This document shows, one piece after another, positions 4,045-58,089 of a stretch of 64,000 nucleotides of DNA. The stretch lies in the NCBI GenBank assembly GCA_044892525.1, contig CM097885.1, positions 86,552,001 to 86,616,000 of the forward strand. The letters are read 5' to 3'. The translations under genes were made by a program, and so were the position numbers. The stretch's first letter is position 1; each line of letters starts with the position of its first letter. Under the pieces are notes generated by a model. It did not search any database, had not been told where the DNA came from, and was given only the letters and a program-made list of their open reading frames with translations. The DNA is from Schmidtea polychroa. Lineage: Eukaryota.

Positions 4045-4053
4045 GCACCTTCA
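3993..4053 (-). promoter_or_regulatory. Putative UGA readthrough signal (in-frame UGA + downstream stem-loop), E1
   Basis: UGA 4051-4053, 10-nt spacer, arms 4028-4040 / 3993-4005 pair 12/13. Confidence 0.6.
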
Positions 4054-12352: not shown

Positions 12353-12361
12353 GCATTTTCA
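12301..12361 (-). promoter_or_regulatory. Putative UGA readthrough signal, E2
   Basis: UGA 12359-12361; perfect 13-bp inverted repeat 12336-12348 / 12301-12313 with 22-nt loop. Confidence 0.65.
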
Positions 12362-20740: not shown

Positions 20741-20749
20741 GCATTTTCA
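20689..20749 (-). promoter_or_regulatory. Putative UGA readthrough signal, E3
   Basis: UGA 20747-20749 in frame with ORF2; same 13-bp stem as E2. Confidence 0.65.
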
Positions 20750-32978: not shown

Positions 32979-35900
32979 GTAAAAGTTTATTAAAATAACA
33001 AATTTGAATTTTTATATACATGCGGACAATGCTCAACATGGAGCACGCCATTCAGAAAATAACAAAGTCAAAAGAGTCAGAAGGATATCAAATAATCACA
33101 AATGTTTGAGAGTTTTTCGACTCAATTGTCAATGCTTCTTTTCTGAACTGTCCTCGGCTCTGATTTGTGGAATTGTCATCGGAACAGTCCGGCTTTGCAT
33201 GACGACGATTTGTGGCAGCAGATTTGATGTTGCTGCAACTTGGCTGACGGTCTGATCAGTCTGTTGTTTGATATTGACAGGACTCTAATGCAAACGAGGT
33301 ATCATCTAATTCGCATTAACTGAATAGTACCATCTCTACAGATGACATCCGAGCAACAGCAGACTTATCAAGATTTTGATTGAGATCAGCAACCATCGGC
33401 ATGCAGCATATGTCCTTTTAACATCTAAATAGTTTTTTACAAAAAGATATGCATATATATATTTATAAATAATCCTCGTACAGGGGGGAGTATCTAAAAG
33501 CTGTAACATATCTAATAAAATACTTTTATACACAAAACATTTATAACAAAGTATTTACAACAATGATAATGCCAATAAGGGGTTAAGGCCATCGAATTAA
33601 TTGTTATTAAAGAGCTGGGTTTTATCCGGATCTACTAAAATGCCAGTCTTGTGAAAATACCACCGTCTGGCAGAATGTGTAATGTTGCTTATTGCACATT
33701 CTTTCAGTAAACCCTTAAGCTCAGTTTGCTTTACTCCAATTTTAAGAAGGATGTTTGGAGTTTGTGGTGGAAAAGATCCAAGTGAGCCAATAATGCAAGT
33801 GTCAAGTTCGACCTGAAAGTCTGGTTTGACAACTTGTATTTGCTTTTTCAGCGAGTCATATTTTTGCAAGTTAAGCAAATCGACATTTTCGAAGTTGTTC
33901 AGAGAATCGCATGGACATTTCATGTCGACAAGAAAGATTTTCTTTCTGGTCATGTCAGTGATCATAAGATCAACTCGTTCCTTGGAGTTTGGTACAAGAG
34001 AACAGACATGATCCACAACGATGAGCAAATTAGAATTCTGTTTCAAATTCGAAGTGATAAGTTTCAGACAATCATTGTGTCGTTCAGCACCAAGAGTCAG
34101 ATGGACCTTACATGATTGGATTACATGTGACATTGTCTCATCTTCCGTGTGACACAATCGACAAAGTCTCTTTTCGCCTTTATTATTTGGCTTTGCATTA
34201 ATGGAAAGAGTGTTTGTGCGAGCCCGATGTATGAAATTCCAGGCAAATTCCGACAAATCACTTCGGAATATTGCCTTGTTTATTTTTGGTGAAAGTTTTA
34301 CTGCAGAAGCTATAAAGTTCGAAATACAGCTCTTTTCCCATTTCGAAAGGTACGAGTCACAGAGTGCCATGTGTAAGACTTTCGATGTGGTTTTGCGAAG
34401 ATCACTAGTTAGAATGCATGTGCCACGCATAGTTGTTGTTATGTATAACGATGGCTCATGATTTGTGACGATGAATGAAATTTTGATGTTGTGTGTCTTT
34501 TCAAAGAACGCAACTGCTATTCTCGCTCTCTGAAAACGAGTTTTCTTTCCAGAATGGTAGGGTTTAGACTCTCTACCATTGAGCCAGTCAAGACTTTCTT
34601 GTAGTGTTGGCTCTTTAATACCAAGTCGCGGTCCTGTGACAAATTTTAAAGAATCAATGTTAATCTTTCTGGCAAGGTCACATTTCGAAGTAAAAAGTCG
34701 GAAAAAGTGTGTGATTGTCTGCGTATGATATTCATCGAGAAGATCAACGCAGTTTGCCCCTCCGTTTTCAGTTGAATTGTAAAAATAGCTTACTTCAGAG
34801 TGATTGGGCAAGAACATCATTTTCCTAAAACAATTTCTTAATTCGCTAGTGATGTTTACAGAGAGATTTTTGTTCTCACTAGATTTGGAAAGAGCACTAG
34901 TTTTAATTTCACGTGTTCTGAAAGCGAAGATCAAACGAGAATGGACAAAGACCTTATACGCCTTTAGTTTCTGCCAACCAAGTAAATCAGAGTCTGCAAG
35001 TTTTCTTGTATCAGAGACTGCCTTTTTTAGAGTATCATATGGACTTTGATCAGTTTCCTCACCAACCGGAACGCCAAGGTACTGATAGAATTCATTTGGC
35101 AGCAATTTCTTTATTTTGATGTCATTAATTACGATTTCACTTTCCGATTGGGTCTTTGGAAGTTGTAAATACCCACATTTTTCAGGCCGATATACGAAAC
35201 CAATTTCAGCGGCAGTTTTTACAGCTATATTTGTGATTTTCTGTAGGTCATTAGCAGATTTTGCAACAAGAGCAATATCGTCAGCATATGCCAGAATCTT
35301 GACAGGAGATTCTCCAATCATAAAAGGCTCACACTCAGATCTAGAGACAGCTTCAAGTACAGGATTGATGGCCAAAGCAAACAAGATCATCGAAATAGGG
35401 CATCCTTGTTTGACACCCTGTTTTATTGGAATTTTCGGAGTCAAGATTGGACCACAACTATAAAATGTGCTCGTGTCAGAGTATAACATTTGCAGGATAA
35501 AAGCGAATTCCTCACTTACTCCAACGAATCGAAGTAAGGACCACATATACTCATGTGGGACACTGCCAAAAGCGTCTTTTATATCGAGCCAGGCTATAGC
35601 AATTGGAGAGTTCTTACTGTATTTGGAGTGTTCTAGAGCTGATGAGAGAATCGAATTGTGCTCAACACATCCATCATGTCTGGAGCCACCTTTCTGTCCA
35701 ACATGCAAAAGGTCATTTTTATTTATCCAATATGTCAAACGACTCGCAAGACATGAGGCAAACAATTTGTAAATGACAGAAAGTAAAGCGATTGGACGCC
35801 AAGACGAGCAATCCTCATATTTCCCATTTTTGTCAGGCTTAGGAATCAGAAGAGTTTTAAAGCTCTTCCAATTGTCAGGTATGATTTTATCGAAAATGAT

Positions 35901-36396
35901 TTTATTGAATAGAAAGCACAGTAATTTACCTTTGGGATCAAGGAGCAGCAAGTCTCGATATTGTATACCATCAATACCCGGACTTGTGTTGTCAGCTCGC
36001 TTGAGTTCATAAATTACTTCAAGTTCTGAAAACGGTTCCAGGTCAAGTTTTTGTTGGGAGCGTTTACAAAAGCTAAATGTTTTAGTCCAGTTTCCTTGAA
36101 AAGGTGATTTTATCAAGAAATTTAAAACTATATTATTCTTATTATTAGCATAAGATAAATAATTACAATAGCTTTGAGGTTTACTAAATGGTAATTTACT
36201 ATTATAGGAAGTCTTATTATGAAATGTTAAATTTTTCTTATTATCCTTCCCCCTATTGGCATTATTATCATAAAATTTAACATTTAAAAAATTCATTATG
36301 AAATCAAGTTTATAATTAAACTTACTGATCCAATCTTCAGTCATTTCTTAATAAATAAATAAATAGATTTTAGGTTTTCTTTAAATTTTCAAATTC
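32979..36396 (-). mobile_element. E5: family A element with 4665-bp internal in-frame deletion
   Basis: 3418 bp = E4 length minus 4665; both termini intact. Confidence 0.93.
33597..36344 (-). CDS. E5 fusion ORF, 915 aa: ORF1 first 70 aa + RT + CCHC + RLE
   Basis: Junction ...YANNKN|NIVLNF... at 36134/36135. Confidence 0.85.
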   Translation of the reverse strand: MTEDWISKFNYKLDFIMNFLNVKFYDNNANRGKDNKKNLTFHNKTSYNSKLPFSKPQSYCNYLSYANNKNNIVLNFLIKSPFQGNWTKTFSFCKRSQQKLDLEPFSELEVIYELKRADNTSPGIDGIQYRDLLLLDPKGKLLCFLFNKIIFDKIIPDNWKSFKTLLIPKPDKNGKYEDCSSWRPIALLSVIYKLFASCLASRLTYWINKNDLLHVGQKGGSRHDGCVEHNSILSSALEHSKYSKNSPIAIAWLDIKDAFGSVPHEYMWSLLRFVGVSEEFAFILQMLYSDTSTFYSCGPILTPKIPIKQGVKQGCPISMILFALAINPVLEAVSRSECEPFMIGESPVKILAYADDIALVAKSANDLQKITNIAVKTAAEIGFVYRPEKCGYLQLPKTQSESEIVINDIKIKKLLPNEFYQYLGVPVGEETDQSPYDTLKKAVSDTRKLADSDLLGWQKLKAYKVFVHSRLIFAFRTREIKTSALSKSSENKNLSVNITSELRNCFRKMMFLPNHSEVSYFYNSTENGGANCVDLLDEYHTQTITHFFRLFTSKCDLARKINIDSLKFVTGPRLGIKEPTLQESLDWLNGRESKPYHSGKKTRFQRARIAVAFFEKTHNIKISFIVTNHEPSLYITTTMRGTCILTSDLRKTTSKVLHMALCDSYLSKWEKSCISNFIASAVKLSPKINKAIFRSDLSEFAWNFIHRARTNTLSINAKPNNKGEKRLCRLCHTEDETMSHVIQSCKVHLTLGAERHNDCLKLITSNLKQNSNLLIVVDHVCSLVPNSKERVDLMITDMTRKKIFLVDMKCPCDSLNNFENVDLLNLQKYDSLKKQIQVVKPDFQVELDTCIIGSLGSFPPQTPNILLKIGVKQTELKGLLKECAISNITHSARRWYFHKTGILVDPDKTQLFNNN

Positions 36397-37133: not shown

Positions 37134-37231
37134 AGTCCACAACACCTCGTATTCCCAAGCGGTCACCCATCCAAGTACTAACGAGGCCTTAACCTGCTTA
37201 ACTTCCGAGATCGAACGAGATCGGGTGAACC
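37134..37231 (-). pseudogene. RNA5S: 5'-truncated 5S rRNA gene (nt 22-119) downstream of E6
   Basis: Same junction. Confidence 0.95.
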
Positions 37232-37835
37232 GTAAAAGTTTATTATTAAAACAAATTTGAATTTTTGTACAAGCGGACAATGCTCAACATGGAGCACGCC
37301 ATTCGGAAAATAACAAAGTCAAAAGAGTCAGAAAGATATCAAATAATCACAAATGTTTGAGAGTTTTTCGACTCAATTGTCAATGCTTCTTTTCTGAACT
37401 GTCCTCGGCTCTGATTTGTGAAATTGTCATCGGATCAGTGAATTTGATTGTCCGGCTTTGCACATCGATGATTTGAGACAGCAGATTTGAGGTGCTGCAA
37501 CTTGTCTGAAGGTCTAATCAGTCTGTTGTGAGTTATTGACAGGACTCGAATGCAAACGAGGGATCATCAGATGACATCCGAGCAACAGCAGACTTATCAG
37601 GATCTTGACTGAAATCAGCAATCATCGCTATGCAGAATATGACCTTTTTACATCTAGATATTTTTACAGAAAGATAGCATGTATACATATATATTTATAA
37701 ATAATCCACGTACAAGAGGGAATATCTAAAAAGTCTAAAAAATCTAATAATACATAAATACTTTTATACACAAAACATTTAAATTAAAAATTTAATCTAT
37801 GATAATGCCAATAGGGGGAATGAATGTGCCTTAAA

Positions 37836-40800
37836 TCATTTAATACTCGGGAATTTGAATTTATCGAGATCAATCAAGACGCCGTTTTTGTGGTAGTGCC
37901 ACCGTCTTGCAGAGTGTGAAATATTGCTCATGGCACAATCTCTCATTAAGCCTTTCAAACGACTACGATCAATTCCTATTTTGAGAAGAATTTCAGGAGT
38001 CTTTGGAGGGAAAGAACCTAAAGAACCGATGATACAGGTATCAAGTTCAACATTGAAATCAGGTTTGACATCTTTTATTTGTCTCCTGAGTGATTCATAT
38101 TTTTGCAGATTGAGCGAGTCAACGTTTTCAAAATTATTCACAGTGTCGCACGGACATTTCATGTCAACTAGAAAGATCTTTTTCCTTGCCAAATCCGTGA
38201 TCATCAAGTCAATTCGTTCCTTGGAGTATGGAACAAGTGAACAAACATGGTCAACAACAACAATCAGATTTGGGTTTGTTGTAAGGTGAGAAGTTATCAG
38301 TTTAAGACAGTCATTGTGGCGCTCAGCACCAAGAGTAAGATGAACCTTACAAGATTGAATAATGTGTGACATTGTCTCCTCTTCACTGTGACATAGTCGA
38401 CAGAGTCTAGTGTCACCTCTATTATGTGGTTTAGCTTTGTTGGAAAGGGTGTTTGTGCGAGCTCGGTGAATAAAGTTCCAAGCAAATTCCGACATGTCAC
38501 CTCGAAAGATTGCTTTATTTATCTTAGGTGCAAGTTTTATCGCCGAAATAATGAAACCCGAGGTACAGCTTTTTTCCCATTTTGAAAGATAAGAGCCATG
38601 AAGAGCCATGTGTAAAACTTTCGATGTGGTTTTGCGAAGATCACTAGTTAGAATGCATGTGCCACGTATTTCACTTGTAATATAAAGTGATGGTTCTTTC
38701 TTTGTGACTATAAATGAGATGTTTATGTCATGTTCTTTTTTAAAGAAAGCAATCGCCGTTCTAACTCTCTGAAATCGAGTCTTTCTACCAGAATGAACAG
38801 GTTTTGATTCTTTACCATTGAACCAATCAAGACTTTCTTGTAGTGTTGGTGTTTTAATACCGAGTCGTGGTCCAGTTACAAAGTTAAGAGAGTCGAGGTT
38901 AATCTTTCGCGCGTATTCACATTTCGAAGTAAGGAGTCTGAAAAAGTGTGTTATTGTCTGCGTGTGATATTCATCAAGAAGATCAACGCAGTTTGCCCCT
39001 GCGTTTTCAGTTGAATTGTAAAAATAACTTACTTCAGAGTGATTAGGCAAGAACATCATTTTCCTAAAACAATTTCTTAATTCGCTAGTGATGTTTACAG
39101 AAAGATTTTTGTTCTCACTAGATTTTGAAAGAGCACTAGTTTTAATTTCACGTGTTCTAAAAGGAAAGATCAAACGAGAGTGGACAAAGACCTTATATGC
39201 TTTAAGTTTCTGCCAGCCAAGTAAGTCAGAGTCAGCAAGTTTTCTAGTATCAGAGACTGCTTTCTTAAGAATCTCATATGGACTTTGATCAGTTTCCTCA
39301 CCAACTGGGACGCCAAGATACTTATAGAATTCATTTGGCAGCAATTTCTTTATTTTGATGTCATTAATTACGATTTCACTTTCCGATTGGGTCTTTGGAA
39401 GTTGTAAATACCCACATTTTTCAGGCCGATATACGAAACCAATTTCAGCAGCAGTTGTCACAGCTATATTTGTGATTTTCTGTAGGTCATTAGCAGATTT
39501 TGCAACAAGAGCAATATCGTCAGCATATGCCAGAATCTTGACAGGAGATTCTCCAATCATAAAGGGTTCACAGTCAAATCTAGAGACAGCTTCAAGTACA
39601 GGGTTGATGGCCAAAGCAAACAAGATCATCGAAATAGGACATCCTTGTTTGACACCCTGTTTTATTGGAATTTTCGGAGTCAAGATTGGACCACAACTAT
39701 AAAATGTGCTTGTGTCGGAATATAACATTTGCAGAATAAAAGCAAACTCCTCACTTACTCCAACGAATCGAAGTAAGGACCACATATACTCATGTGGGAC
39801 ACTGCCAAAAGCGTCTTTTATATCGAGCCAGGCTATAGTAATAGGAGAGTTCTTACTGTATTTTGAGTGTTCTAGGGCCGACGAAAGAATGGAATTGTGT
39901 TCAACACATCCATCATGTCTGGAGCCACCTTTTTGTCCAACATGCAAAAGGTCATTTCTCTCTATCCATAATGTCAAACGACTTGCGAGACAAGAGGCAA
40001 ACAATTTATAAATGACAGAGAGTAAGGCAATTGGACGCCAAGACGATACGTTGTCATATTTGTCACTTTTATCAGGTTTTGGAATAAGGAGCGTTTTGAA
40101 AGTTTTCCAACTTTCAGGTATTACTTTATTAGTAATGATTTTATTAAATAAAACAGTTAGTAATTTACCCTCAGGATCGAGAAGCAACAAATCTCGATAT
40201 TGAATACCATCAATACCGGGACTTGTGTTATCGGCTCTCTTGAGTTCAAAAAGTACCTCCATATCTGACAAAAGTTCTAGCTTGAGGATTTTCTCTGAGC
40301 GCTTACAAAATTTAAAAGTATTATCCCAAACTTGTTTTATAGGAGTCTTGTGCATGAAATGCATCACAATATCCTGAAATTTAGGTCTGACATTGACATC
40401 TATGTCGTTAAAAATTAAATTAACTGCGGATTTCATATCAGTTTTAAATTTTGAAATTAATTTATTTTTATTTATTTTCGAAGTTTCTCTCTTTCTAGTT
40501 CCCAAATATGGTTTATGGGTTGCACTTGCGTGGTCAGGAAATTGTTCAATAATCAGATTAATAATGTCATCGACATCTAAACTAATTACTTTCTCTAAAA
40601 GTTCATCAATCTTATGTTTACGTTGTTCCAAGTTTTCGCAACCCACGCGTTTTTGGTTAACTTTATTATTTTCCACAGATTTGATTTTTTTTATTTCTTT
40701 TGCAATGGGAAGAAAGGAACTTATAACATTACCAATAACACGCAAATTTAAATTTGTCAAAGGTAAATCATTAGCATAGTTTGTTATAAAGGAGCAAATA

Positions 40801-42497
40801 AGAATCTTGCTGACCAAACCTGAGCCACGAGTGTCATGTGGACATTCACCAATGTTTAGTACCCTCCCAGGAGATTCTTTTATTTCATTAATTTTATTCC
40901 TCAGTTTTTTAACATAATTTAAATAATTTTCATTTTCCACAAGAGTTGTGGGATTTAATAAATAATATTCATCAGTATTATAATCTATTATTAACAGAAT
41001 TTCACGATATTTAGGGGGTGCTACAATGGCAAATATGATTTGCGCCCTTGTTATATTTTCATAATTTAAAAACTGGTACAAGTACTGTGTGCAGTCATCA
41101 AGAATCGCAGTGCACATTGCAACATTTAGAAGCATATAGTTACTGGATAATTTTAAATTATTAAAATATTTTGTAATTATTTCGTCATTAATTGTAAAAT
41201 TAATTAAATTTAAATTTTTGCAGATCTCATTAGTCATTTGTAGTTTAATGGAATTAAGATTTTCATTGATAATTTTGAAAGACGGATTATTATTAAAAAT
41301 GAGAACCTCAAGAAATTCAATAAACTTACATGCAAAAAAGTGAGGATCTTTGGAAATAAAAGAAAGTAGACTCTTTCCATGATCATTTAGAAAGTTAACT
41401 TTACCATTAGAGATGAAAAATTTGTTGAGGTAATCAGTCATGTTTTCACCTATACCAATTAATCTCTCGTCAATGATACAATCTTGAAAATTGAAAATAT
41501 AACTTTTTTTAATCAACGAAGAAAAAACATATAAGCACCAGTCCGAATTGTTTGGAATAACACCGATCACATGCTGAACATTAGAAAATTGTTTAAAAGT
41601 AACATTTTCTCTAATATATTCATCATTTTGAGCCATAATATTCAAAGTCAACTCATTGGACATGACAGTTACATTTTCTTTACTACCAAACCATTCTTTT
41701 ACAAGAGATGCGATACACGGACTTTGACCGGAAAGAAAAGCTCGACTTGAATGATTAATTTGCTTTTGCACTGGCATTTTAATATTTTTGATAGTAGGAA
41801 TTTTCTTAACTCCATTTCGTTTAATTTCCTCCATAAACTTTGGTAGGCCACCCCCCGAAATTTTCGCGACACCATGAGGCTGGTCAATCTGAAATTGATG
41901 AACTTTTTCTCTAATTTCCTCAATAAAATTGTTCGGAAAACATTTCCACTCTCCACTTATCATCATAGCATATGCACAGATGTAAGGTCCACAATCGTAA
42001 CTGTTATCTTGGTAAGTAAAGTTATTGTGTGGGTGAAAAGATACAGCAGCTTTGAGATCAAACAGATTATTAAGAGCCAGAGTGATTCTAGTAGCACTTG
42101 TCTTGTTAGTAAGATCATGTCGCTTTCGAAAGATTGGGTCAATAAAGTAGGATAACAAAGTGGTTTTACAATAAACAAAGAGTATCCAATGAGATTTATT
42201 TATGTTGAGGGGACATAATATTATTTGCGCATTGTAGACTTTTTCTGGAATCGGAAAAATGTTCTCATTAAAGTCAGTGCGCAGTATTTCAACTATAAAG
42301 CATTTAAGTGGCGCAAAATCTGGGTCACTGATGTGATTTTCAAGGTAGTGGTCGATATCATCATCAGTGAACCAGAATTTTGGATCACGAACTACATTTT
42401 GATAAGTTTTATTAATTAATGCCTTATTAATGTTTAATGTGCTGTCTGCATCAGTCTCCTTAGAGATTAAAGCAGATTCTGAGACTGATGCAGGCAC
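37836..42497 (-). CDS. E6 ORF2, 1553 aa: Ulp1-like x3, RT, CCHC, RLE
   Basis: Same motifs as E3 ORF2. Confidence 0.95.
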   Translation of the reverse strand: MPASVSESALISKETDADSTLNINKALINKTYQNVVRDPKFWFTDDDIDHYLENHISDPDFAPLKCFIVEILRTDFNENIFPIPEKVYNAQIILCPLNINKSHWILFVYCKTTLLSYFIDPIFRKRHDLTNKTSATRITLALNNLFDLKAAVSFHPHNNFTYQDNSYDCGPYICAYAMMISGEWKCFPNNFIEEIREKVHQFQIDQPHGVAKISGGGLPKFMEEIKRNGVKKIPTIKNIKMPVQKQINHSSRAFLSGQSPCIASLVKEWFGSKENVTVMSNELTLNIMAQNDEYIRENVTFKQFSNVQHVIGVIPNNSDWCLYVFSSLIKKSYIFNFQDCIIDERLIGIGENMTDYLNKFFISNGKVNFLNDHGKSLLSFISKDPHFFACKFIEFLEVLIFNNNPSFKIINENLNSIKLQMTNEICKNLNLINFTINDEIITKYFNNLKLSSNYMLLNVAMCTAILDDCTQYLYQFLNYENITRAQIIFAIVAPPKYREILLIIDYNTDEYYLLNPTTLVENENYLNYVKKLRNKINEIKESPGRVLNIGECPHDTRGSGLVSKILICSFITNYANDLPLTNLNLRVIGNVISSFLPIAKEIKKIKSVENNKVNQKRVGCENLEQRKHKIDELLEKVISLDVDDIINLIIEQFPDHASATHKPYLGTRKRETSKINKNKLISKFKTDMKSAVNLIFNDIDVNVRPKFQDIVMHFMHKTPIKQVWDNTFKFCKRSEKILKLELLSDMEVLFELKRADNTSPGIDGIQYRDLLLLDPEGKLLTVLFNKIITNKVIPESWKTFKTLLIPKPDKSDKYDNVSSWRPIALLSVIYKLFASCLASRLTLWIERNDLLHVGQKGGSRHDGCVEHNSILSSALEHSKYSKNSPITIAWLDIKDAFGSVPHEYMWSLLRFVGVSEEFAFILQMLYSDTSTFYSCGPILTPKIPIKQGVKQGCPISMILFALAINPVLEAVSRFDCEPFMIGESPVKILAYADDIALVAKSANDLQKITNIAVTTAAEIGFVYRPEKCGYLQLPKTQSESEIVINDIKIKKLLPNEFYKYLGVPVGEETDQSPYEILKKAVSDTRKLADSDLLGWQKLKAYKVFVHSRLIFPFRTREIKTSALSKSSENKNLSVNITSELRNCFRKMMFLPNHSEVSYFYNSTENAGANCVDLLDEYHTQTITHFFRLLTSKCEYARKINLDSLNFVTGPRLGIKTPTLQESLDWFNGKESKPVHSGRKTRFQRVRTAIAFFKKEHDINISFIVTKKEPSLYITSEIRGTCILTSDLRKTTSKVLHMALHGSYLSKWEKSCTSGFIISAIKLAPKINKAIFRGDMSEFAWNFIHRARTNTLSNKAKPHNRGDTRLCRLCHSEEETMSHIIQSCKVHLTLGAERHNDCLKLITSHLTTNPNLIVVVDHVCSLVPYSKERIDLMITDLARKKIFLVDMKCPCDTVNNFENVDSLNLQKYESLRRQIKDVKPDFNVELDTCIIGSLGSFPPKTPEILLKIGIDRSRLKGLMRDCAMSNISHSARRWHYHKNGVLIDLDKFKFPSIK

Positions 42498-42506
42498 GCA
42501 TTTTCA
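42446..42506 (-). promoter_or_regulatory. Putative UGA readthrough signal, E6
   Basis: UGA 42504-42506; perfect arms 42481-42493 / 42446-42458. Confidence 0.65.
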
Positions 42507-45404
42507 CTTAGTTTTAGGAGCATTTCTCCTTGTATTTTTGAAAGGTTGCTGCTCCATGACACTGTTATGAACGTTGTTGGTCACAATATCAGTTGAATCG
42601 CCCCCATCAATATCTACCGGGAATTTTATTTCAGGTGTCTCACCACCATTTCTCAGCGATGACTCAACAACTTCATGATCAGCAATGGAACAAGAAGGGT
42701 CTTCCAAATGATTTTCAAAGGATTCAGCAATACTGTCAACAATGGCTGAGTCAGGTGCATTGTCCACCTGACCAGTCATTTCCAAAGACGCGATAGGTAA
42801 AATATAATCCAGTATTTTAGAGATCATAATGCTCATCTTACTGGTACATATCTTGGTGCAATTTCGTGGAATACGAAAATTAAACCGATTGTTGGTCAAG
42901 AAACGTTTTTTGTCTCTAACGATAAAGTATAGGAGTCGCTTTGCTCTCTCCGTGTCAGAATCATTTGATTCATTTTTAAATTCATTTATTTTATTACTAA
43001 TTTTATCAAGCGCACTTAACTGATCTATCTTTTGAGGTAAAGCAACATCTAGAGTGTCAAGGAAGTTGTTTATTTCAGAGATCGTTTTTGGAGAAATGAT
43101 ATTGTGTATAAGGTCAATCTCACGAGATAAATTCAGTTGACGGAGTCTTAAAAGTCTTTCCTGACAACTGGAATAATAGTAAGAAGAACAAGGAATCATT
43201 TTAATCATCTCTGGAGCCCAATTTTCAATGTTGTCACATCTTAATGCGTTGCAATTCTCAATATTCGTTATTGAGTGTATCAAAAAGCAATTGCGTAAAT
43301 AGTTAAGTACGTATTCATCAAATGTGGCATTTGAAGTGTACTCCAGTGTACCTTTTAACTGTAAGTAGTTTAAGTGAAAGATTATATTAACCAATTTTTC
43401 AGACGAATTCGATTGAGAAAGTAGAGATCGTAGTACATCGTCTTTCTCAGACATGCTAAGTAAGTTCAGTAGGCCAAGATTAAACATAATGTCTGACTGG
43501 CTCTCAAAATTCGAAGCGCCGTCATCTCCAGCTCTACCAGATTTCACAAACTTACCCTCTACAAATGAAATTTGCTCAGGAAATCCTCTCTCCGATCTCA
43601 GAGTCTGAATGAGCTGGACCAGTTTTTCAGGATTCTCTGCGATGTTTTCAGTGAAAAACAATTCAGCTAACTCAGGGAAAGATTTATAAAGATCACGTAC
43701 TTGTGAACGAGAAAGCTCAGCTGTCTCAGCATTGGAATTCAAACTATTAGGAGCATCACTTTCAAGTAAGTCTAACATGACAAAATCACCATCTTGATAC
43801 TTGATCTGTGATTTTATCAGGTAGTCCGGGAGAATCCCTTGCTTTTTTATTAGGCTCAAAGCAGTGTTTATCTGTTCTCCCCGTAATTTAGCGTTCCCTA
43901 TAGTTGATGTTTCTGCAAGTTTTGTAGATAGTACAAATAAAAATTTCTTAATTGCTAATGATGCTGGGATAAACTTTGTCGAACCACTGACGACTGATAT
44001 AATTTTAGAATTAATTATTGATGTTTTTATTTTTTTAGTATTTAATTTCTTTTCTTTAAAAGTTTGTAAATTAATATTTACACATATATTATGGTTTCTA
44101 TAAAATAAATTTAGAAAACCAGACAATTTTAAAGGATTTTCAGTTTGAGAAATTTTCGCGAGTTCGGAATTTAACAATTCAAATTTTTTAGGGGATTCCT
44201 TATATTTTAATAGTTTAACAAATTTTGGAAAAGCACTAAGGAACTGATGCTTCTCGTTCTTATTCAGAGTTCTTACAAGTAAGTTACAGTTATTTATTTT
44301 CGAATTTATTAAACTGTTTTCATTTTTTTGGTTAACTTGAATATTTAATAGCTTAGTGCTATCTTTAACGGGTAAAGGTTTATCAATTTTTAAATTGTTA
44401 ATATTCGAAGATTTTGATTTAATTAATTCAACCTTATTTTTAATAATGTTGTTATTGCTTAATTCATTTGATTTATTTAAATTTAAATTTTCATATTCAA
44501 ATAAAGGTAATTTTGAAATATCTTTTTTAATTAAATCATTTTTAATATTTATTTCGAGATTAGAATCATCCACTTTCCAAGGACCCGAAACGATGCGCTG
44601 TCCAGACGAAAAATCAGCGTTGGAAGAATAATTGGCGTCCTTTGCATTTTCATTTTTATTAAAAGGCAATTTATCATCTTTAGTATTTTTATGATTTAAG
44701 TTATAATTTAACGTTTCTTGTTTATTAATTAAATCATTTTTAATAGATATTTGAAAATTAGAGTACTCCTTATTCCAAGGACCTGAAACAATGCGATGAC
44801 CAGACGAAAAATCAGCATTTGAAGAATAATTGCCTTTTTTAGTTAAATCATTTTGAATATTTATTTCAAGATTAGAGTACTCTTTATTCCAAGGACTTGA
44901 AACAATGCGCTGTACAGACGAAGAATCAGCATTTGAAGAATGATTGCCTTTTTTATTTAAATATAATTTTCCAGATTTACTAATTTCATCTTTGAAATCT
45001 TCATTACATAAATTATTATTTAAATTTTCTGATTTATTAAAAACAGTTTTAAATCTATCATTTAAAGAAAAAGATTCAGCGGTTTGGGAATTTCTTTCAT
45101 GATAAGTTAAAGCATTATTAATTTTAACTTTTCTTTCTCCAGTGGAATAACATGTCATTCTCAGATCATCTTTTTTTGACGTATTATAAGCTGAATTCTT
45201 AAAATTTAAATGGGCGCTATCCAGATTCCCCTTATTAACATTATCATAAAAATTTACGTTTAAAAATTCAATTATTAAACTAAGTTTATTAGAAAACTTA
45301 CGGAAATCTCTTTCTAGCCCATGAATTCTTCGAAACATATTTTCATCTTCAAATGAGTAAGCATCTTTACGTCCAGATCGTCCAAAATTCATATTTCTTC
45401 TCAT
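42504..45404 (-). CDS. E6 ORF1, family B (966 aa from first ATG; track extends to TTG at 45455)
   Basis: Intact ORF; contains three ~38-aa repeats. Confidence 0.85.
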   Translation of the reverse strand: MRRNMNFGRSGRKDAYSFEDENMFRRIHGLERDFRKFSNKLSLIIEFLNVNFYDNVNKGNLDSAHLNFKNSAYNTSKKDDLRMTCYSTGERKVKINNALTYHERNSQTAESFSLNDRFKTVFNKSENLNNNLCNEDFKDEISKSGKLYLNKKGNHSSNADSSSVQRIVSSPWNKEYSNLEINIQNDLTKKGNYSSNADFSSGHRIVSGPWNKEYSNFQISIKNDLINKQETLNYNLNHKNTKDDKLPFNKNENAKDANYSSNADFSSGQRIVSGPWKVDDSNLEINIKNDLIKKDISKLPLFEYENLNLNKSNELSNNNIIKNKVELIKSKSSNINNLKIDKPLPVKDSTKLLNIQVNQKNENSLINSKINNCNLLVRTLNKNEKHQFLSAFPKFVKLLKYKESPKKFELLNSELAKISQTENPLKLSGFLNLFYRNHNICVNINLQTFKEKKLNTKKIKTSIINSKIISVVSGSTKFIPASLAIKKFLFVLSTKLAETSTIGNAKLRGEQINTALSLIKKQGILPDYLIKSQIKYQDGDFVMLDLLESDAPNSLNSNAETAELSRSQVRDLYKSFPELAELFFTENIAENPEKLVQLIQTLRSERGFPEQISFVEGKFVKSGRAGDDGASNFESQSDIMFNLGLLNLLSMSEKDDVLRSLLSQSNSSEKLVNIIFHLNYLQLKGTLEYTSNATFDEYVLNYLRNCFLIHSITNIENCNALRCDNIENWAPEMIKMIPCSSYYYSSCQERLLRLRQLNLSREIDLIHNIISPKTISEINNFLDTLDVALPQKIDQLSALDKISNKINEFKNESNDSDTERAKRLLYFIVRDKKRFLTNNRFNFRIPRNCTKICTSKMSIMISKILDYILPIASLEMTGQVDNAPDSAIVDSIAESFENHLEDPSCSIADHEVVESSLRNGGETPEIKFPVDIDGGDSTDIVTNNVHNSVMEQQPFKNTRRNAPKTK
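44517..44955 (-). repeat. Three copies of a ~114-bp (38-aa) coding repeat in family B ORF1 (also E2 ~14380-14815, E3 ~22760-23200)
   Basis: N(Y/H)SSNAD.SS..RIVS.PW....SN..I.I.NDL; cagacg anchors at 44603, 44801, 44915. Confidence 0.88.
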
Positions 45405-45719
45405 TTTATTGATAAAAAATTTCCTCCAATATCCACGTTTTTCAATTTCCTGCAACTAACAAAATAAATTATGCAAGAAAAAATTATCTTTAGTGATGCA
45501 ATCCAATACGAATTCCGATGATGTAACCTAGTGCTAGTATATTATTTTTCCAACCAAATATTCAATCATTGAATTTTTTTCAATTGATTTCATCGATTCG
45601 CCAACATATGTTGAGATAGGCTGAAAAAATGAAATAAAAAAAATTTAATGGCCATAAAAATATACCTGATTGTCCACTCAGAATTGAATTCATCAAAATT
45701 GAATTGTGGAATAAAAAAA

Positions 45720-46439: not shown

Positions 46440-49400
46440 TTAATTGTTATTAAAGAGCTGGGTTTTATCCGGATCTACTAAAATGCCAGTCTTGTGAAAA
46501 TACCACCGTCTGGCAGAATGTGTAATGTTGCTTATTGCACATTCTTTCAGTAAACCCTTAAGCTCAGTTTGCTTTACTCCAATTTTAAGAAGGATGTTTG
46601 GAGTTTGTGGTGGAAAAGATCCAAGTGAGCCAATAATGCAAGTGTCAAGTTCGACTTGAAAGTCTGGTTTGACAACTTGTATTTGCTTTTTCAGCGAGTC
46701 ATATTTTTGCAAGTTAAGCAAATCGACATTTTCGAAGTTGTTCAGAGAATCGCATGGACATTTCATGTCGACAAGAAAGATTTTCTTTCTGGTCATGTCA
46801 GTGATCATAAGATCAACTCGTTCCTTGGAGTTTGGTACAAGAGAACAGACATGATCCACAACGATGAGCAAATTAGAATTCTGTTTCAAATTCGAGGTGA
46901 TAAGTTTCAGACAATCATTGTGTCGTTCAGCACCAAGAGTCAGATGGACCTTACATGATTGGATTACATGTGACATTGTCTCATCTTCCGTGTGACACAA
47001 TCGACAAAGTCTCTTTTCGCCTTTATTATTTGGCTTTGCATTAATGGAAAGAGTGTTTGTGCGAGCCCGATGTATGAAATTCCAGGCAAATTCCGACAAA
47101 TCACTTCGGAATATTGCCTTGTTTATTTTTGGTGAAAGTTTTACTGCAGAAGCTATAAAGTTCGAGATACAGCTCTTTTCCCATTTCGAAAGGTACGAGT
47201 CACAGAGTGCCATGTGTAAGACTTTCGATGTGGTTTTGCGAAGATCACTAGTTAGAATGCATGTGCCACGCATAGTTGTTGTTATGTATAACGATGGCTC
47301 ATGATTTGTGACGATGAATTGAATTTTGATGTTGTGTGTCTTTTCAAAGAACGCAACTGCTATTCTCGCTCTCTGAAAACGAGTTTTCTTTCCAGAATGG
47401 TAGGGTTTAGACTCTCTACCATTGAGCCAGTCAAGACTTTCTTGTAGTGTTGGCTCTTTAATACCAAGTCGCGGTCCTGTGACAAATTTTAAAGAATCGA
47501 TGTTAATCTTTCTGGCAAGGTCACATTTCGAAGTAAAAAGTCGGAAAAAGTGTGTGATTGTCTGCGTATGATATTCATCGAGAAGATCAACGCAGTTTGC
47601 CCCTCCGTTTTCAGTTGAATTGTAAAAATAGCTTACTTCAGAGTGATTAGGCAAGAACATCATTTTCCTAAAACAATTTCTTAATTCGCTAGTGATGTTT
47701 ACAGAGAGATTTTTGTTCTCACTAGATTTGGAAAGAGCACTGGTTTTAATTTCACGTGTTCTGAAAGCGAAGATCAAACGAGAATGGACAAAGACCTTAT
47801 ACGCTTTTAGTTTCTGCCAACCAAGTAAATCAGAGTCCGCAAGTTTTCTAGTATCAGAGACTGCCTTTTTAAGAGTATCATATGGACTTTGATCAGTTTC
47901 CTCACCAACCGGAACGCCAAGGTACTGATAGAATTCATTTGGCAGCAATTTCTTTATTTTGATGTCATTAATTACGATTTCACTTTCCGATTGGGTCTTT
48001 GGAAGTTGTAAATACCCACATTTTTCAGGCCGATATACGAAACCAATTTCAGCGGCAGTTTTTACAGCTATATTTGTGATTTTCTGTAGGTCATTAGCAG
48101 ATTTTGCAACAAGAGCAATATCGTCAGCATATGCCAGAATCTTGACAGGAGATTCTCCAATCATAAAAGGCTCACACTCAGATCTAGAGACAGCTTCAAG
48201 TACAGGATTGATGGCCAAAGCAAACAAGATCATCGAAATAGGGCATCCTTGTTTGACACCCTGTTTTATTGGAATTTTCGGAGTCAAGATTGGACCACAA
48301 CTATAAAATGTGCTCGTGTCAGAATATAACATTTGCAGGATAAAAGCGAATTCCTCACTTACTCCAACGAATCGAAGTAAGGACCACATATACTCATGTG
48401 GGACACTGCCAAAAGCGTCTTTTATGTCGAGCCAAGCTATAGCAATTGGAGAGTTCTTACTGTATTTGGAGTGTTCTAGAGCTGATGAAAGAATCGAATT
48501 GTGCTCAACACATCCATCATGTCTGGAGCCACCTTTTTGTCCAACATGCAAAAGGTCATTTTTATTTATCCAATATGTCAAACGACTCGCAAGACATGAG
48601 GCAAACAATTTGTAAATGACAGAAAGTAAAGCGATTGGACGCCAAGACGAACAATCCTCATTGGAAGTCAGTTCAGGAGAAAGAACAGATATGTTGGTTC
48701 TCCTTTCAAAATATTTGCTAAGTAAACTCGAGATGCAGGAGTTCTGTTCCAGGAGAAAGGCCTGGTTCTGGGTAGGCTTTTTCTTAACTCCATTGCGCTT
48801 GATTTCCTCCATAAATTTTGGTAGGCCGCCCCCCGAGCTTTTTTGGTGTTTGTGTTGTGAAGAAATTTGTGATTGATGGACCTCCTTTCTAATTATTTCG
48901 ACAAAACAGTCAGGAAAGCTATGCCATACTCCGCTGATCATCATGGCGTATGCGCAGATGAACGGTCCACAATCATAATTGTTAGTCTGATAGCCAAAGT
49001 TTTCATGTGGATGGAACGTCATGGCTGCTTTTAGATTGAAAACATGATTCAAAGATCTTGTTATTTGAAGAGCATGCGTTTTATTGGAAAGATTATGCCG
49101 ATACTCAAAGATTGGGTCAATAAAGTAGGAAGTCAAAGAATTCTTACAATATACAAACAAGATCCAGTGAGTTTTGTCAATATTAAGGGGGCATAAAATT
49201 ATTTGCGCTTTAAAAATCTCTTCCGGAATCGGAAAAATGTCCTCATTAGGATTAGCGCGTAATATTTCAACAATGAAACATTTAAGTGGCGCAAAGTTTG
49301 GGTCACTGATGTGATTTTCAAGGTAGTGGTCGATATCATCATCAGTGAACCAGATTTTTGGATCACGCGCTGGATTATCACTATTCTGAACAGTTTTGAT

Positions 49401-49469
49401 ATAATTTATTGTGCTGTCTGCATCAGTCTCGTTAGAGATTGGGGCAGATATTGGGACTGATGCAGGCAC
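46440..49469 (-). pseudogene. E7 ORF2, 1009 aa, lacks degenerate Ulp domains and RT N-terminal motifs (probably defective)
   Basis: ...SPELTSN|EDCSSWRP...; ADNTSPGIDG and KTLLIPKP motifs deleted. Confidence 0.8.
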
Positions 49470-49478
49470 GCACCTTCA
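49418..49478 (-). promoter_or_regulatory. Putative UGA readthrough signal, E7
   Basis: UGA 49476-49478; same stem as E4. Confidence 0.62.
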
Positions 49479-58080: not shown

Positions 58081-58089
58081 GCACCTTCA
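58029..58089 (-). promoter_or_regulatory. Putative UGA readthrough signal, E8 (weakened stem)
   Basis: UGA 58087-58089; 7 bp + 2x2 internal loop + 4 bp. Confidence 0.55.

Follow-up and report, generated by a model that had tools for sequence, protein, structure and literature searches.

How is the enzyme-coding reading frame of a retrotransposon translated when a stop codon separates it, in frame, from the reading frame that precedes it? The question is raised by the window analyzed here, a stretch of 64,000 nucleotides (nt) of Schmidtea polychroa (contig CM097885.1, positions 86,552,001 to 86,616,000). The window is an array of retroelements lacking long terminal repeats (non-LTR elements) inserted in 5S ribosomal RNA (rRNA) genes; each has a first open reading frame (ORF1) and a second one (ORF2) coding for an Ulp1 protease, a reverse transcriptase (RT) and a restriction-like endonuclease (RLE). 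Judging from its conservation, the ORF1-UGA-ORF2 junction is a real, strongly conserved recoding-type signal. We consider it likely that structure-stimulated UGA readthrough yields a polyprotein comprising ORF1, protease, RT and RLE, which may cleave itself at a conserved Gly-Gly.

The ORF1-UGA-ORF2 junction

The initial annotation had described seven junctions reading AA(A/G) TGA (AGG/AAA) TGC GTG CCT GCA, and all seven do so, ORF1 and ORF2 abutting in a single frame across the UGA in each of them. The stops lie on the minus strand at 4051..4053, 29910..29912 and 49476..49478 (family A, the last in a copy with an internally deleted ORF2), at 58087..58089 (a family A variant with two stem mismatches), and at 12359..12361, 20747..20749 and 42504..42506 (family B; the copy at 20747 has an extra stop inside ORF1). 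The full-length family B element at 37232..45535 on the minus strand, to which all further coordinates refer unless otherwise stated, has its candidate readthrough codon at 42504..42506, in the context AAG UGA AAA. ORF1 (42507..45404) codes for 966 amino acids from the first AUG, and ORF2 (37836..42503) spans 1555 codons from stop to stop. The readthrough product from the first AUG would measure 2522 amino acids in family B and 2470 in family A, in agreement with the sizes first proposed. The claim that the first in-frame AUG of ORF2 lies past the His, Asp and Cys residues of the protease holds for family B (M180), but not for family A, where M152 is found between D120 and C169; over seven families, this AUG ranges from codon 37 to codon 317.

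Searching the genome with distant homologues retrieved further families, located in tRNA-Gln/Ala, Met, Gly/Asp, Ser, Arg, and Phe arrays, with the in-frame UGA and the same spacing. Six families have an intact ORF2, sharing 54-80% ORF2 identity, and their targets include 5S, tRNA-Gln/Ala, Met, Gly/Asp, and Ser; a seventh, at tRNA-Arg, is broken. The terminal stops of ORF2 in the six families are TGA, TAA, TGA, TAA, TAA, and TAG; since they differ, an ordinary stop is apparently free to vary, whereas the junction UGA is not.

The two-arm stem pattern that follows the stop occurs at 498 sites genome-wide (reversed control: 0), with a TGA exactly 10 nt upstream at 496 of them. The 5'-arm motif alone is preceded by TGA at 577 of the 580 sites having a T at the stop position, the count leaving out sites with any other first base. 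The two exceptional sites fetched (one TAA, one TGG) lie in damaged copies. Most genomic copies of the junction are young and not independent; the comparison between families is the informative one.

Artefact or decay was ruled out as the origin of the stop, which is fixed across hundreds of copies and many families, and a variant genetic code was also ruled out, the ORF2 of families B and C terminating at TGA. As for a frameshift signal, our own scan flagged a slippery heptamer in only one of seven families.

A decayed protein of 362 amino acids (P0083) reads through the junction, with a Ser at the stop position. A CxxC...CxxC motif is present near the C-terminus of ORF1 both in this protein and in the tRNA-Met family (ORF1 tail of locus L035).

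A conserved stem-loop downstream of the stop

In the family B element, the UGA is followed by a spacer of 6 nt (42498..42503), corresponding to two codons (K/R, then C/H/Y/F), and by a stem-loop (42439..42497). The latter consists of a basal helix (42497-42494 paired with 42442-42439), a 3-nt bulge (42445-42443), and a stem of 13 base pairs (bp) starting at +11 (42493-42481 paired with 42458-42446) that closes a 22-nt loop (42480-42459). The arms, the 10-nt distance, and the 22-nt loop had been recognized in the initial annotation and were borne out, with 13/13 pairs in family B, 12/13 in the family A copies at 29910, 49476, and 4051, and 7+4 at 58087. The stem extends beyond the 13-bp core originally claimed, however, by the additional 4-bp basal helix GUGC/GCAC, which is invariant in 12/12 aligned junctions, begins 6 nt past the UGA, and holds the GUG in paired form. 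Similarly, the arms are conserved as stated, but the loop, described as divergent, is partly conserved, most families sharing TCTGC. No conserved pseudoknot partner was found for the loop.

The folding energy of the stem, compared with dinucleotide shuffles, gave z scores from -2.1 to -5.5 in nine out of ten junctions and -1.15 in the remaining one, a decayed fragment; in five out of five families the stem is the lowest-energy one among 1225 windows of 66 nt. Synonymous identity reaches 0.91 in codons 3-23, against a median of 0.51 and 0.76 in the next best region. Degenerate invariant codons are identical across all six families in 7 cases out of 9 within the first 25 codons vs. 13 out of 270 elsewhere. 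Protein constraint seems a poor explanation for this synonymous conservation, because ORF2 residues 1-14 are unstructured in the structural model (mean predicted local distance difference test score, pLDDT, 82.8). These data indicate that the stem is under selection as RNA, at the nucleotide level.

For distant homologues, the analysis was made on proteins. Seven full-length relatives (35-50% identity) and four proteins from a profile search begin with M-P/H-x, as expected if a gene caller had placed their start at the same GUG (or AUG) following a stop. Since the arms pair codon against codon, the residues reveal pairing at first and second positions. An anchored three-codon test on these 11 homologues (9 distinct arm pairs, 54 cells) gave 38 unchanged, 8 compensatory, 6 wobble, and 2 mismatched cells, the compensatory ones including changes from V/T to D/S, V/T to T/V, S/D to P/G, and A/A to T/V. 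Shuffling of the arms yielded 2.8 compensatory and 7.8 mismatched cells (P=0.0004), a value that does not come from a pre-set test, because the anchored version came after the result of a four-codon test. In the latter, the cross test gave 64/5040 permutations, and single proteins, compared with other positions, were not individually significant (fractions 0.02-0.94).

The junction in sister lineages

A second group of elements in the same genome shows exactly one stop, a TGA, in 127 out of 150 matches (hand count), the others being mostly partial or decayed. All 13 distinct loci that were fetched have CUA or UGG right after the TGA, which falls at the Trp of an Ulp1-like motif. The Ulp1-like domain of this group lacks the catalytic residues, no start codon is shared, and no hairpin was found after the UGA.

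Moreover, 31 metagenome loci were considered, eight of which were translated; five of these, belonging to the UGA lineage, reach the junction (L048, L049, L051, L052, and L054). All five harbor an in-frame UGA (UGA-CAA, UGA-UGG twice, UGA-CGG, and UGA-CGA), two of them being decayed, with further stops. In an RT tree built on 36 rows, after removal of one input lacking the YADD motif, both genome groups, the stem-type homologues, L048, L049, and L051 form a clade with support 100/99, and the single-ORF Utopia-like rows fall outside it; L052 and L054 did not enter the tree and were attributed to the lineage by sequence similarity. From zero to three Ulp1-like domains lie between stop and RT, and the lineages of the clade have no start codon in common. 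According to these data, the in-frame ORF1-UGA-ORF2 junction is a feature of the clade.

In protease-less metagenome relatives (L052:519-560; L049:498-600), UGA-CGG or UGA-UGG is followed by G-rich arms. Those of L052 may form a local pairing (z -3.8 over 110 nt), those of L049/L051 a pairing with a partner about 80 nt downstream (not significant).

How ORF2 might be translated

We can depict the following scenario. Ribosomes would start at the ORF1 AUG and most of them would stop at the UGA, releasing the ORF1 protein; a minority would insert an amino acid through a near-cognate tRNA and continue into ORF2. Candidate near-cognate tRNAs at UGA are those for Trp, Cys, or Arg. The stem-loop, 6-10 nt downstream, would help readthrough, compensating for the non-leaky UGA-A context. 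The resulting product would be a polyprotein of about 2500 amino acids (ORF1-protease-(degenerate repeats)-RT-RLE), made at a low ratio, and cleavage after Gly-Gly would leave ORF1-protease and free the RT-endonuclease part.

The junction has two features of readthrough-type signals, that is, a single conserved in-frame stop and a conserved structure placed a short spacer 3' of it. Programmed readthrough appears to be favored over the alternatives named in the initial annotation (reinitiation at the GUG and selenocysteine-type recoding) by the invariance of UGA and frame while ORF2 stops vary, the fixed spacer, the nucleotide-level selection on the stem, and the compensatory changes inferred in distant homologues; further arguments are the in-frame UGA of sister lineages lacking the GUG and the failure to find a selenocysteine insertion sequence (SECIS).

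Several observations weigh against readthrough. The stem-bearing group has UGA-AAA, UGA-AGG, or UGA-AGA, so its UGA-A lies outside the known leaky contexts (UAG-CAR-YYA, UGA-CUA/CGG, UAG-GGN). The tested structural stimulators described in PMC13517186 have spacers of at least 8 nt, longer than the 6 nt found here, though the 13-bp core starts at +11. The covariation suggested as a check was not found at the DNA level: over the 12 junctions compared in this genome, none of the 17 stem pairs has changed on both sides, and 11 are invariant. The arm test on homologues is indirect: the best synonym was picked for Ser, Leu, and Arg, relatedness was ignored, the arm of P0005 was placed by spacing, and proteins do not display the stop. 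Exchange could also inflate nucleotide identity in the stem, because a recombinant (L036) crosses over at the hairpin. Furthermore, the GUG is kept at the same place in 11 homologues, one match of the second group spans the junction site without any stop, and structures after the UGA of metagenome relatives are not significant (z above -1.3 in 9/10 folds). Lastly, in the Candida albicans element Tca2, a similar gag-UGA-structure junction alone directed no readthrough in a yeast reporter (PMC2194720).

The recombinant itself (L036:697-8546) is a mosaic, with the 5' part of the tRNA-Gly/Asp family, the ORF1 of 5S family A, and the ORF2 of the tRNA-Gly/Asp family.

The main rival, which we regard as unlikely, is termination followed by reinitiation, in which a 40S ribosomal subunit kept after the UGA would restart, aided by the structure that follows, at the GUG two codons on, or at a nearby codon, producing a separate, protease-first ORF2 protein. 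Such restarts have precedents in non-LTR elements, namely SART1, whose stop-start site requires a downstream structure, and L1, with its AUG-independent ORF2 (PMC5972666, PMC11485995), and the GUG is invariant in this genome, with the 11 homologues beginning at the same position. However, the GUG pairs in the basal helix, which accounts for its conservation. Reinitiation needs neither one type of stop nor a fixed frame, yet UGA and frame are kept while the ORF2 stops vary, and sister lineages retain the in-frame UGA without the GUG or any common AUG. The marks of calicivirus-type reinitiation, an upstream UGGGA and a nearby in-frame start codon, were not found: UGGGA is absent within 100 nt upstream in 7/7 families, the AUG overlapping the stop in six families out of seven is out of frame, and no in-frame AUG precedes codon 37.

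Rather less probable still is the synthesis of ORF2 from a separate or processed RNA, originating from an internal promoter or from trans-splicing of the flatworm spliced leader, which, joined at the GAG that precedes codon 17, would bring its 3' AUG into frame. This leader has a terminal AUG and is able to generate ORFs (PMC9851317), all 7 families have an in-frame AG just ahead of codon 17, and cryptic promoter activity was reported at the Tca2 junction (PMC2194720). Nevertheless, the acceptor would be a GAG inside the 13-bp stem, located after other AGs in several families, and the invariant in-frame UGA and the 5' arm would be left unexplained. In addition, contig 5 of run X1 (a guessed RNA, weak, and uninformative on level, ends, and editing) spans the junction without splicing, and the loose ends listed included none that looked like a leader.

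We assign a very low probability to a change in the meaning of the UGA itself, either by adenosine-to-inosine editing to a Trp codon in some transcripts or by selenocysteine insertion with the stem as redefinition element. Retroelements coding for selenocysteine do exist (Naiads, PMC8557442), and the UGA of the sister group occupies the place of a Trp. On the other hand, neither Rfam nor a simple pattern scan of six 3' untranslated regions (UTRs) detected a SECIS, the UGA is not at a conserved Cys, the position expected in a selenoprotein, and it is unpaired in the predicted folds of the following 66 nt and in most longer folds.

Weakest of all is the idea of a hairpin devoted to RNA packaging, reverse transcription, or template switching that follows the stop only incidentally, ORF2 being obtained through unassisted basal leakiness or another route: the crossover of L036 at the stem and the lack of a comparable stem in sister lineages would suit it, but the stop distance, fixed at 496/498 sites and in all families examined, and the standing of the hairpin as the single strongest structure of the coding region speak against it.

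Returning to readthrough, the simplest account would be that one ancestral ORF1-UGA-ORF2 junction with low-rate readthrough was tuned by context in some branches and by the hairpin in the present one. More widely, the whole non-LTR lineage would be gag-pro-pol-like (ORF1, low-rate UGA readthrough, zero to three Ulp1-like domains, RT, and endonuclease), with branches tuning the stop differently and the intact-protease branch processing itself at Gly-Gly; we put forward this wider reading tentatively, as possible but somewhat short of probable.

The ORF2 protease and a candidate cleavage site

The N-terminal domain of ORF2 (residues ~40-207; 41883..42386) is an Ulp1/SENP-type (C48) protease, matching PF02902 above the cut-off and retaining an intact H105-D122-C171 triad together with Q165. 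Its structural model (pLDDT 82.8) matches NEDP1, SENP5, and Ulp1 in Foldseek at E-values from 4e-8 to 9e-8; a first model of 600 amino acids, built from 7 sequences, had been poor (pLDDT 45).

Ulp1/SENP-class proteases cut after Gly-Gly. A Gly-Gly is found 36-55 residues after the catalytic Cys in 7/7 families of this genome and in 6/7 distant homologues, within a low-confidence linker; in the family B element it corresponds to Gly-Gly-Gly 217-219 (41847..41855), which follows the protease and represents a candidate self-cleavage site. No conserved Gly-Gly separates the protease from ORF1. Cleavage of the polyprotein by the Ulp1-type domain probably takes place after the Gly-Gly of the linker, although the protease might instead act on host SUMO or NEDD8 conjugates.

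Between the putatively active protease and the RT lie two degenerate Ulp1-like repeats (40764..41723, ORF2 codons ~261-580), weakly supported (independent E-values 0.031 and 0.0035) and devoid of the catalytic His and Cys. The RT domain (39306..40085; PF00078, E 8.5e-26) is followed by a CCHC zinc knuckle and by a motif that, read from the sequence, we take to be a restriction-like endonuclease (approximately 38004..38402). There is a weak zf-RVT match, and the CCHC and RxD...DxKCP motifs are invariant in 9 aligned proteins.

ORF1 of either family has no Pfam match, and one search among 8000 candidates retrieved no homologue at E<=0.001. No close fused relative emerged from the ORF2 search, whose window covered proteins of 855-2722 amino acids and was not aimed at longer fused forms.

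Comparison with known elements and signals

The type of element is already known: from the 3' end and the target sites, the elements of the window appear to be nearest, within the NeSL clade, to the planarian LIN/R5 lineage. Like LIN25_SM, LIN15_SM, and R5, they combine an RT with a restriction-like endonuclease and insert into multicopy small-RNA genes (PMC4640811). Their last 40 nt resemble the 3' end of LIN25_SM (supplement S6 of PMC4640811), and the sister families insert into tRNA genes at nt 5-6, as LIN25_SM does, or at about nt 20, as LIN15_SM does. The fixed site in a multicopy gene (5S nt 22; tRNA arrays) is that of a site-specific RLE-type element. Unlike in the LIN/R5 lineage, the target is also 5S rRNA (nt 22), which is not among the targets given in the section of PMC4640811 on these elements; its account of the LIN families makes no mention of a stop, readthrough, hairpin, or protease.

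The nematode members of the NeSL clade, NeSL-1 and Utopia-1_TSP, share an Ulp1-like cysteine protease upstream of RT and RLE (PMC4640811). With respect to nematode NeSL in the strict sense, the N-terminal Ulp1-like protease is present here, whereas the target is 5S rRNA or tRNA genes instead of the spliced-leader gene. Utopia generally codes for one protein with N-terminal zinc fingers (PMC4640811); in the elements of the window, by contrast, a stop separates the protease from an ORF1 of 930-980 amino acids, and the Ulp1-like repeats number up to three.

Among viral signals, the gag-UAG-pol junction of Moloney murine leukemia virus and the type II UGA signals of alphaviruses and coltiviruses likewise comprise an in-frame stop before a protease or polymerase, a short spacer, and a stimulatory structure (PMC13517186). 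The junction of the window differs from them in its UGA-A, in a simple bulged stem-loop without a conserved pseudoknot partner, in a Cys rather than Asp protease, and in its non-LTR setting. UGA-CUA and UGA-CGG are described as type II contexts (PMC13517186), and they occur in some sister lineages only. Tca2, a Ty1/copia retrotransposon, also has an in-frame gag-UGA-pol arrangement with a predicted downstream structure (PMC2194720), but it is an LTR element. SART1 (UAAUG coupling, with a downstream structure) and mammalian L1 (reinitiation) are non-LTR elements obtaining ORF2 from the ORF1 mRNA; they restart translation, whereas the elements of the window have no in-frame AUG near the stop and a continuous frame.

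Gammaretroviruses are known to read through a stop between structural and enzyme ORFs, and the same has been proposed for some LTR elements. Our literature search, with Repbase entries and most subscription journals outside its reach, found no report of it in a non-LTR element. RT production in two-ORF long interspersed nuclear elements (LINEs) is known for few elements, in which it depends on StopGo, coupling, or reinitiation; with a conserved readthrough signal, non-LTR biology would gain a route similar to that of retroviruses. Such a signal would also account for annotation pipelines that take these active elements for broken ones or place the ORF2 start at a GUG, and would supply a compact recoding element (~65 nt) working on a UGA-A context. 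The Gly-Gly linker is a concrete candidate substrate for the Ulp1-type protease of NeSL-clade elements, and the families, with 5S rRNA and many tRNA genes as targets, enlarge the range of site-specific RLE elements that may be useful for targeted insertion. If the lineage-wide reading were true, LINEs would have evolved on their own a retrovirus-like plan of expression and maturation, and a role would be found for the Ulp1 domain of NeSL-clade elements, which has long lacked an explanation.

Organization of the elements in the window

The window embeds 17 long ORFs, all on the minus strand, arranged in a head-to-tail array with a unit of about 8.3 kb; in each unit, ORF1 measures 920-980 codons and ORF2 either 1538 (family A) or 1555 (family B). 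Thirteen Rfam matches to 5S rRNA lie between the units. The 3' ends of 8/8 elements join 5S at nt 22, and the 5' ends lie upstream of the 5S gene, with loss of target sequence. In these 5S arrays (e.g., 37134-37250), families A and B share the 3' insertion site and differ in their 5' junctions, both of which delete target sequence. In the case of the family B element, the interrupted 5S rRNA gene (37134..37231) adjoins the 3' UTR (37232..37835), and the 5' end lies a few nt upstream of 5S +1, a target deletion with no duplication seen. The final ~190 nt of the 3' UTR (e.g., 37232-37420; L031:8900-9070) are conserved between 5S and tRNA families and are likely the RT recognition element.

Some copies of the array are rearranged. 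At 33597-36347 (minus strand), a deletion derivative fuses the start of ORF1 in frame to RT-RLE in a 916-codon ORF without stop, hairpin, and protease. The family A copy at 46440-49475 (minus strand) has lost in frame the degenerate Ulp1-like repeats and the start of the RT, with the junction intact. The variable part of family B ORF1 (~44900-44550) contains a repeat of ~25 amino acids (NYSSNAD..SG.RIVSGPW) in three copies.

Outside the window, the sister families (L031-L033, L035-L038, L043, L044, and L047) occupy tRNA-Gln, Ala, Met, Gly/Asp, Arg, Ser, and Phe arrays. One and the same family of ORF2 is present in both tRNA-Gln and tRNA-Ala arrays, suggesting a rapid target switching among RNA polymerase III genes. 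Finally, trinucleotide microsatellite tracts beside decayed copies (L039:7996-8694, L094, and L095) give rise to spurious poly-Leu/Tyr ORFs.

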